Part shown: piece by piece, positions 21,475 to 39,227 of the stretch
How the letters are laid out: every line of letters starts with the position of its first letter
How positions within the stretch are numbered: the first letter of the stretch is position 1
Sequence record: PZ452578.1
DNA: 64,000 nt
Reading direction: 5' to 3' (one strand)
Origin: a phage
Notes under the pieces: model-generated
Databases searched by the model: none
The model's input: only the letters and a program-made list of their open reading frames with translations
Told to the model about the DNA's origin: nothing
Translations under genes and position numbers: made by a program

Positions 21475-21803
21475 TCACAAGATGTAGATGAACAGCTAGA
21501 ATCACAAGAACTTCCGCATGAATCACCTGCCCATACATGAACAGGGACATTTGTATCATATGAAGAATTAGAACTTTTAACTTCGTTAGAAGATGTAGGT
21601 GTTGACCAGCGCCAGGGATTTTTATAATATTCCTGGGCTTCTTCATAAGTCATAGTAACTGCTTCTACTGTTCCATCTCCCATATAAACATACTCAACTA
21701 CAGTTAAAGGAAGGTAGTCATTTGAAATAGGAACTACACCTTCTCCAGGAGTCGTAGAGAAAAAATCTGTAAAGAAACTTTTAAACCAATTAAAGATAAA
21801 CAT
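21471..21803 (-). CDS. hypothetical protein (110 aa) with Cys/Ser-rich C-terminal tail
   Basis: ORF track; C-terminus [18 protein letters not shown]. Confidence 0.55.
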
Positions 21804-22105: not shown

Positions 22106-22351
22106 TTATTCACCAGTTACTTTCCACAAATCTTCATTTGCAGCAATCCATTCAGTACGTTGATTTTCTTCATATACTGTAGAATATGCTGCTTTTTCTG
22201 AAGGGAATGTCTGATAATGAGCACCAGAAATTTTGTGAACGTCAGAATAAAGAGGGAAAGCTACAGAAATTTCCTTTCCTTCAATTTTCTTATTTCCATC
22301 TAATTTCTGCTCAAATGTTTTGATATTAACATAACCGCGAGTACTAGCCAT
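22106..22351 (-). CDS. soc: Soc small outer capsid protein
   Basis: ORF track 81 aa; MASTRGYVNIKTFEQKLDGNKKIEGKEISVAFP matches T4 Soc. Confidence 0.9.
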   Translation of the reverse strand: MASTRGYVNIKTFEQKLDGNKKIEGKEISVAFPLYSDVHKISGAHYQTFPSEKAAYSTVYEENQRTEWIAANEDLWKVTGE

Positions 22352-29630: not shown

Positions 29631-30472
29631 TTAATCAACTGCTATCGGATGAATAGCATTAAACTTATGAAATGCTTCTGATTTTTCTTTGCGCGAAACA
29701 CACATGCGAAGAACCTTTAATGGCTCGTCTTCTTCACCCAACGATTTTCGTTTTTCAATATTAGAAGTTTTCCAACGAGCTTGCTCTGGAAACTCTCTAT
29801 TGATTTGCTCAAGCGCTCTATTATGTTTAGAATTACTACGAATTGAACTGCACCCGCCAGGAGCTTGTGCTTTTCCAGATACAACCAGATATTTGAACAA
29901 GGCCAAATGCGGATAACCTTGATTAATTAAATTGAGAAATGCATACATATCTTCGCACAAATCAATTTTTCCATACCCAATTTGTTCTGTCGTAAGTTTT
30001 CCAAGGTCATACCATGTATTCGTGAATCCATATGAATTTTCACGATAATTACCCCAAGATGAAGTAATTTTAAAAATTGGTAGACGAGCATGACCGTGAT
30101 AATACCCACAATCCATGGCATCCTCAACATATTGAATCAATTCATAGAACTGTTCACGAGTCAATTGATTGACTTTATCTACGCAACGACGATCATCTCT
30201 TTTTCGCATTGAACTCATACGAATAGTAGTATCATCGTCAATCATCCAGATTCGTTGACCTGCATACATATCAGTAATTGCTTTACGAGTACCGGCAATT
30301 CCGTTTACATCATCAGGAATAGTTACAATTTTAGCTCTAGACCCATAGGCATCATAATAAGCTTTTTCTTCGTGTTCACGCACTACAATATGGGTTCATA
30401 ATCAGTCGGAAACATATCAAGGGCAGAAACTGCCCCAACACGCTGATAACTTGGAATTACGAATTGAATCAT
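29631..30472 (-). CDS. GT-A-type glycosyltransferase at the beta-gt locus (not T4 beta-gt); split by an apparent 1-nt frameshift near 30383-30395
   Basis: 29-codon ORF 30383..30472 (MIQFVIPSYQRVGAV..., ATGA-coupled to gene 42 stop) continues in another frame as the 250-aa track ORF; DXD motif WMIDDDT. Confidence 0.6.
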
Positions 30473-38267: not shown

Positions 38268-38459
38268 TTAGTCATAATAATCAGTAACAGTCCAAGCTTC
38301 ATTTCTATTGGACATTATTTTTGTATATTCTGCTTTAAATGCATTCCTAAGCATAGATTCAGTAACTATATGCTCTTCATTAGAAAAATTATTTCTCAGA
38401 ATATATCGTTTTATTTCAGGAATAGTTAATAGATGCTGTCCAGTTGAATATTCTGCCAC
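38268..38459 (-). CDS. hypothetical protein (63 aa), 45.2 position
   Basis: ORF track. Confidence 0.55.
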   Translation of the reverse strand: MAEYSTGQHLLTIPEIKRYILRNNFSNEEHIVTESMLRNAFKAEYTKIMSNRNEAWTVTDYYD

Positions 38460-38510: not shown

Positions 38511-39227
38511 ATGAATTATAAACTAATTTATGAAAAGTTAATCTCTAATGCTAAATCTCGAAAACTTGATTGCTATACTGAATCTCATCACATTATACCG
38601 CGCTGTTTAAATGGAAGTGATGATGCTTCAAACTTAGTAGATTTAACACCAGAAGAGCACTATGTAGCTCATCAACTTTTAGTAAAAATTTATCCTTCTG
38701 AACCAAAATTAGTCTATGCTGCTAACATGATGACAGTTTCTACGAAATACGCTAAACGCAACAATAAAACTTTCGGTTGGATTCGTCGTAAACTCTGGGA
38801 AATAGAAAAGAACAAAGAATTCTCCCAGGAGACACGAAAGAAAATGTCTGATGCAGTAGCTAATAAAGCAAGACTAACTTGTCCTCATTGCGGTAAGTCT
38901 GGATTAAGCGGGAATATGAATCGTTGGCATTTTGATAACTGCCCAAATCACCCTAATCCTAAAGTTAGACCACCAATGTCTAAAGAACACAGAAATAATA
39001 TCTCAAACGGGCTTAAAGCAATCGTTCTTGAAGAAACATCCTGCGAATTCTGCGGAATGATAGGCAAGAAATGCGTTATCGCAGCGCATAGAAATTTCTG
39101 CAAGAAAAATCCAAATGGACGCAAGAAAACTGAAAAGACTGGTACTTGCGTCCATTGCGGTAAAGTTACCACTTTCGGAAATTTATCAAGGTGGCATAAT
39201 GATAACTGTAAATATAAACCTAGCTAA
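38511..39227 (+). CDS. HNH homing endonuclease (mob-like) with Cys-rich C-terminal DNA-binding repeats
   Basis: ORF track 238 aa on plus strand; HNH motif ESHHIIPRCLNGSDDASNLVDLTPEEHYVAH; absent from this position in T4. Confidence 0.8.
   Translation: MNYKLIYEKLISNAKSRKLDCYTESHHIIPRCLNGSDDASNLVDLTPEEHYVAHQLLVKIYPSEPKLVYAANMMTVSTKYAKRNNKTFGWIRRKLWEIEKNKEFSQETRKKMSDAVANKARLTCPHCGKSGLSGNMNRWHFDNCPNHPNPKVRPPMSKEHRNNISNGLKAIVLEETSCEFCGMIGKKCVIAAHRNFCKKNPNGRKKTEKTGTCVHCGKVTTFGNLSRWHNDNCKYKPS

Follow-up and report, generated by a model that had tools for sequence, protein, structure and literature searches.

Organization of the ba-gt locus

The DNA analyzed here is a 64,000-nucleotide stretch of a phage genome (PZ452578.1), hereafter called the window. 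Sequence comparison shows that the window comes from a T4-like (Tequatrovirus) genome: its gp43 is nearly that of T4, and 24 kb of its length match many Tequatrovirus genomes at 95–97.5%. The ba-gt gene lies on the minus strand, flanked by gene 42, which encodes dCMP hydroxymethylase, and uvsX. It is a glycosyltransferase gene of 280 codons that is present in two pieces (Table 1). The product of gene 42 makes the hydroxymethylcytosine (hmC) base that is glucosylated later, and a-gt makes alpha-glucosyl-hmC, which is the substrate for extension by ba-gt.

The start codon of ba-gt (ATG, 30472-30470) shares the tetranucleotide ATGA with the TGA stop codon of gene 42 on the minus strand, a coupling that an earlier note on this DNA had pointed out. 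The first open reading frame (ORF) of the gene, MIQFVIPSYQRVGAVSALDMFPTDYEPIL, comprises 29 codons and ends at a TAG (30385-30383). The rest of the gene lies in the -1 frame, whose earliest start-like codon is a GTG (30383-30381) corresponding to Val31 of the native protein, which gives an ORF of 250 amino acids. The TAG of the 29-codon ORF and the GTG of the 250-aa ORF overlap by one base (TAGTG). The longer ORF includes the sequence IWMIDDDTT. As the same note had read it, the locus holds a GT-A-type DxD glycosyltransferase at the position of T4 beta-gt.

Alignments place the lesion at a CCC triplet, where the window reads GAACCCATATT and its relatives read GAACCNCATATT. The relatives have GAA-CCN-CAT at this point, whereas the window has GAA-CC-CAT. 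What is absent is the wobble base of Pro27, which can as well be counted as one C from a CCCC run over codons 27 and 28. Putting one base back yields an ORF of 280 codons. The single-base frameshift claimed by the earlier note, with 29 codons on one side and 250 on the other, is therefore present in all its parts; the deletion that it described is now assigned to the third base of Pro27, and the stop codon of the short ORF is found to overlap the GTG of the long one. When the intact GiZh protein was compared with the window by tblastn, 27 of 27 residues matched in one frame and 253 of 253 in the adjacent frame. The intact AV122 protein also gave two adjacent-frame segments, with 27/27 for the N-terminal one. 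This two-segment match is not a chance arrangement.

Table 1. Features of the ba-gt locus and of related genes in the window.
Feature	Position	Strand	Evidence
ba-gt 5' fragment: native codons 1-27, then out-of-frame Ile-Leu-TAG	30383..30472	-	tblastn, 27/27 to GiZh and AV122
Site of 1-nt deletion: CCC in place of CCN+C (Pro27 wobble base + first base of His28)	30392..30394	-	Alignments
ba-gt 3' fragment: codons 28-280, -1 frame	29631..30395	-	tblastn, 253/253 to GiZh
DDD = DxD metal-binding motif, D79-D81, GT-A fold	30231..30239	-	Family alignment
Gene 42, dCMP hydroxymethylase, intact, 246 aa	30469..31209	-	ORF, synteny, annotation
uvsX, downstream neighbour, intact, 393 aa	28372..29553	-	Exact protein in 1326 collection blocks
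a-gt, alpha-glucosyltransferase, intact, 400 aa	43149..44351	-	tblastn, residues 1-400 in a single HSP, 98.75% to AV122

Two further features of this region were recorded. A perfect 7-bp G+C-rich hairpin (GGGGCAG-TTT-CTGCCCT; 30420-30436, minus strand), followed by a T-rich tract, lies within codons 13-21 of ba-gt. It was flagged as terminator-like by a scan and is kept in all relatives, but it may be no more than a by-product of the coding sequence. Some relatives (L035:943-1584 and L038:943-1584) carry an extra 213-aa ORF between gene 42 and ba-gt, by which the ATGA overlap is replaced. This ORF is absent from the window and has no Pfam match.

Identity of the gene

The gene is ba-gt, which encodes a beta-glucosyl-HMC-alpha-glucosyltransferase of the T2/T6 type (Pfam TAGT, PF20691; phrog_842), and it is already known. 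The repaired protein matched Pfam TAGT over residues 3-207 with 38.1 bits (2e-9), against a cut-off of 27.5 bits, and matched phrog_842 at 3.3e-89. The 250-aa fragment reached 28.6 bits against Pfam TAGT and covered only positions 35-205 of the profile. No match for ba-gt was found among NCBIfam profiles or, by sequence, in the PDB. The repaired protein is identical to the GiZh/PaulHMueller protein (P0012) at 280 of 280 residues, to the T2 protein at 277/280 (99%), and to the T6 protein at 257/261 (98%). The repaired, GiZh, T2 and T6 proteins fall together in a single cluster of 485 sequences at 90% identity. The comparison with T2 and T6 thus identifies the product as the known beta-1,6-glucosyltransferase, an outcome for which the earlier note had allowed.

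A 1-kb query of the ba-gt region matched 525 phage records, and in 475 the match covered 80% of the query or more. The labels on these records include beta-glucosyl-HMC-alpha-glucosyltransferase, beta-alpha-glucosyltransferase, ggt, and 'glucosyl transferase'. About 475 Tequatrovirus records have ba-gt at the same position, and the order 42 / ba-gt / uvsX is common to all relatives compared. The ba-gt enzyme (TAGT) puts a second, beta-linked glucose on alpha-glucosyl-hmC, which yields gentiobiosyl-hmC; the majority of Tequatrovirus phages have a-gt together with TAGT, and TAGT is syntenic with T4 beta-gt (PMC13216743, PMC13390438, PMC11078745). Therefore, the description of the gene as a non-T4 glycosyltransferase is true but ordinary: it is the standard occupant of the locus, and T4 is the exception.

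T4 beta-gt (PF09198) holds the syntenic position and also glucosylates hmC DNA. In contrast to ba-gt, it has a GT-B fold that is unrelated to the GT-A fold of ba-gt, and the two enzymes have no sequence similarity (PMC13216743). The Pfam search with ba-gt gave TAGT only. The acceptors also differ, being bare hmC for T4 beta-gt and alpha-glucosyl-hmC for ba-gt. The ba-gt genes of T2 and T6 (also called ggt or g-gt) resemble that of the window in the locus between gene 42 and uvsX, the ATGA coupling, the GT-A fold, the DDD motif, and the partner a-gt in the genome. They differ in that the reading frame of the window's gene breaks off after codon 27, through a deletion that no other record shares.

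The severed N-terminal segment

In an alignment of 71 family sequences, conservation outside the DxD region is highest in the N-terminal segment. I6 is kept in 69/71 sequences, P7 in 68/71, and S/T8 and R11 in all 71, compared with 70/71 for D79, 71/71 for D80, and 70/71 for D81. Most of the 150 homologues listed align starting with their own first few residues. T6 TAGT has been assigned to the GT-A fold (PMC13216743). For the cluster representative P0001, whose identity to the window's protein is 98%, an AF2 model was built with 71 aligned homologues (pLDDT 94.7, pTM 0.92); it has beta1 at residues 3-7, alpha1 at 16-20, and beta2 at 28-32. The top Foldseek matches of this model are the GT-A/GT2-like enzymes WrtF, K4CP, TarS, and TarP, which accords with that assignment.

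The severed N-terminus comprises beta1, alpha1, and the I-P-[ST]-x-x-R motif, and the 250-aa ORF starting from Val31 also lacks most of beta2, so that two core strands are missing from its nucleotide-binding half. No uninterrupted frame includes the motif together with the catalytic body, from which it is split. Because the 250-aa remainder lacks beta1, alpha1, most of beta2, and the invariant R11, the model and the alignment suggest that it would be inactive even if translated. The locus can thus be called a ba-gt gene that is not demonstrably functional, since its frame is broken after codon 27 and the motif is separated from the rest.

Distribution of the deletion

An 81-nt query over the deletion site matched none of 466 phage records at 100% identity. 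The best of these records (98.8% over the 81-nt query) differ from it by the gap alone. All of the best 60 matching records measure 1002 nt in this region, against 1001 nt in the window. Furthermore, 33 loci were fetched regardless of the state of the gene, namely neighbours with the window's exact gp43 or UvsX, IMG/VR, metagenomes, and close phage relatives. An intact ba-gt of 843 nt was found in 33/33, and none carried the deletion. Codon 27 in these relatives' loci is variously CCT, CCC, CCA, or CCG. In each of the 20 contigs that encode exactly the gp43 or UvsX of the window, ba-gt is intact with 280 aa, and the nucleotide identity of these contigs to the window is 96-98%. The exact deletion allele had no match in the viral, metagenome, and genome contig collections. 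These negatives are weak, since the intact allele, used as a positive control, was found in only 3 metagenome contigs and in no genome contigs. The effective denominator for the rarity of the allele is therefore the 466-record phage collection. The exact 250-aa product and a 212-aa truncated product had no match on record. The ba-gt deletion is private to the window's genome.

Approximately 125 ORFs of the 64-kb window are conserved with AV122 or GiZh, and of these only ba-gt is split over two frames. This was determined by tblastn of each ORF; a raw blastn list of indels against the two relatives was too noisy, with mosaic and intergenic segments. The ba-gt of the window has 97.6% nucleotide identity to that of GiZh and the same amino acid at 280 of 280 positions. 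The approximately 2.4% nucleotide difference with no amino acid change, together with the use of four Pro codons at position 27, suggests that ba-gt was under purifying selection until essentially now.

Other features of the window

The soc-like (22115-22351) and mrh.1-like (21528-21803) ORFs have C-terminal ends that diverge from those of AV122 and GiZh, with tblastn coverage of 84-92% and approximately 87% identity. Neither ORF showed a frame split in tblastn against AV122 and GiZh, and judging from these alignments the divergence looks like ordinary mosaic divergence.

A 238-aa ORF (38511-39227) lies on the plus strand, opposite to its surroundings, between gene 45.2 (63-aa ORF, 38268..38459) and gene 46. 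An HNH-like motif (SHHIIPRCLNG...EEHYVAH) occurs in it along with repeated CxxC/HxxxC pairs, and its product is probably a homing endonuclease. AV122 lacks the segment 38453-39240. Some contigs with the same gp43 (L008 and L014) have a 238-aa gene on the minus strand adjoining gene 46.

Probable inactivation of ba-gt by a recent deletion

The most likely explanation of the split gene is a real, very recent 1-nt deletion that knocks out ba-gt. We give this a probability of roughly one half, and an artefact is nearly as likely. The intact frames in the rest of the assembly, the dispensability of the gene, and the private ba-gt lesions in other genomes all speak for a real mutation. Two points tell against it: the remainder of ba-gt is undamaged, as it would also look after an assembly error, and there is no independent second sighting of the deletion allele. 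When the plain null allele is taken together with a selected or switching deletion, it is moderately probable that the deletion is real, and we infer that it is present in the phage and not just in the assembly.

If so, ribosomes starting from the ATGA-coupled ATG would stop after 29 codons. Reinitiation at the overlapping GTG would yield a protein without beta1, alpha1, most of beta2, and the I-P-[ST]-x-x-R motif. The enzyme would normally use UDP-glucose to add the second, beta-1,6-linked glucose to alpha-glucosyl-hmC and thus form gentiobiosyl-hmC. With no active ba-gt and an intact a-gt, the DNA would be expected to contain alpha-glucosyl-hmC and bare hmC, with no gentiobiosyl-hmC. The phage should be viable, since ba-gt is dispensable. 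We know of no defence system that selects for the loss of ba-gt.

An engineered T6 delta-ba-gt phage is viable; its DNA holds alpha-glucosyl-hmC alone, and its sensitivity to Brig1 is increased (PMC11078745). The DNA of T6 lacking ba-gt (T6 delta-g-gt) is a substrate of BapA (bioRxiv 10.64898/2026.02.25.707755). The loss of ba-gt therefore carries a cost against both Brig1 and BapA. By analogy, the DNA-modification phenotype of the window's phage is predicted to be like that of T6 delta-ba-gt: viability, an intact a-gt, alpha-glucosyl-hmC replacing gentiobiosyl-hmC, and a heightened sensitivity to both Brig1 and BapA. The T6 mutant is a clean engineered deletion, whereas the window belongs to another Tequatrovirus and shows a point frameshift that is spontaneous or only apparent; its phenotype is a prediction. 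Phages with an intact ba-gt, such as Solly and CP, have approximately two-thirds gentiobiosyl-hmC (PMC13390438). Both are 98% identical to the window over the 1-kb ba-gt stretch.

Possible sequencing or assembly error

The main competing explanation, which the earlier note had also raised, is that the phage has an intact ba-gt of 280 codons and that one base of CCNC or CCCC was dropped from the consensus. This has a considerable chance of being correct, if somewhat below even. The loss of one base in a short homopolymer, the undamaged state of all other ba-gt positions (280/280 amino acids against GiZh), and the absence of the allele from every other genome or contig are all compatible with such an error. 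Glucosylated hmC disturbs some sequencing chemistries. However, the assembly is not generally indel-prone, since ba-gt alone is split among the approximately 125 ORFs over 64 kb. A random error would also have stood an about even chance of striking some essential gene, 3-4 bases make a short run for a homopolymer miscall, and private ba-gt lesions are present in other deposited genomes too.

Apparent lesions of ba-gt in other phage records

Altered ba-gt genes were seen in several other records. In T6 MH550421.1 (L016:2138-2980), codon 10 is changed from CAG to TAG (Q10amber), and the gene is annotated from Met20 with 261 aa. In T6 AP018814.1 (L019:906-1745), one GAT of the DDD motif is gone, which leaves DD and a protein of 279 aa. 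T6 is the reference for 72% gentiobiosyl-hmC and both of its records are altered, so at least one T6 stock may not be wild type for ba-gt. In RB7 KM606997.1 (L025:301-1144), one A is inserted at codon 226 (AATAGA to AATAAGA), and the gene is annotated with 239 aa. RB7 is the only length variant of ba-gt among 57 full-length records sampled evenly along the ranking. These three cases resemble the window in having a single small lesion, private to one record, in an otherwise conserved ba-gt. They differ from it in position and type of mutation, and two of them are not frameshifts.

The ba-gt of T2 AP018813.1 (L017:2283-3125) carries R11H (CGT to CAT) at the Arg that is invariant in 71/71 TAGT members. 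The 71-nt haplotype with R11H occurs in only 8 T2/SV76 records of 442. Gentiobiosyl-hmC is reportedly about 5% in T2 versus 72% in T6. It is speculation that T2 R11H is a hypomorphic enzyme and explains this low content.

Taken at its widest, the deletion would be real and part of a recurrent knock-out or weakening of ba-gt in Tequatrovirus stocks, comprising the window, two T6 records, RB7, and possibly T2 (R11H). We consider this unlikely. If it were true, the ratio of mono- to di-glucosylated hmC would evolve rapidly, as a trait tuned either to defences or to the economy of UDP-glucose. In its boldest form, the TAGTG overlap would leave a two-piece enzyme with some activity.

A deletion that is real and selected, or that toggles like the contingency loci of T2 agt and so alters the DNA sugar pattern in response to host defence, is improbable. 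In its favour, phages usually escape Brig1 and TgvAB through frameshifts in a-gt (PMC11078745; bioRxiv 10.1101/2025.10.21.683753), and independent ba-gt lesions occur in several stocks. However, the run is only 3-4 nt long (CCC in the window, CCCC at the longest in relatives), compared with the at least 6 nt by which contingency loci are defined (bioRxiv 10.1101/2025.10.21.683753). In many relatives the C is preceded by CCT, CCA, or CCG, which makes no four-base homopolymer. Moreover, no defence is known to be evaded by ba-gt loss, which instead raises sensitivity to Brig1 (PMC11078745), and the deletion allele has been seen only once.

Possible recoding and reinitiation

The earlier note had further suggested programmed slippage. 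Functional recoding by a -1 frameshift at GAA-CCC-A, or reinitiation at TAGTG that makes the 250-aa fragment active alone or with the 29-aa peptide, is very improbable: a -1 shift after CCC does give back the exact native sequence, and the one-base overlap of stop and GTG permits reinitiation, but the site is no X XXY YYZ heptamer (G AAC CCA / GAA CCC ATA, with no tandem re-pairing, so that tRNA-Pro after a -1 slip would need to re-pair with ACC), the downstream 111 nt hold no structure more stable than that of shuffled sequence (MFE -14.5 against a shuffle mean of -17.9 kcal/mol; z = +1.19; 173/200 shuffles fold as well or better), the two-frame layout is conserved in 0/466 records and 0/33 loci, the GTG has no Shine-Dalgarno sequence, and the fragment is without beta1, alpha1, and the invariant R11.

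Biological significance

The gene at the locus is known and sits where it normally does; what sets it apart is a private one-base frameshift, real or apparent. The locus represents neither a new gene family nor a new mechanism, whichever explanation holds, and it is worth a pseudogene flag. If the frameshift is an artefact, the sole consequence is a correction of the annotation. If the deletion is real, the annotation of ba-gt should read pseudogene, and the phage would be a natural counterpart of the engineered T6 delta-ba-gt. In that case, its predicted sensitivity to the glycosylase and deglucosylating defences Brig1 and BapA would shift, which bears on the prediction of host range.
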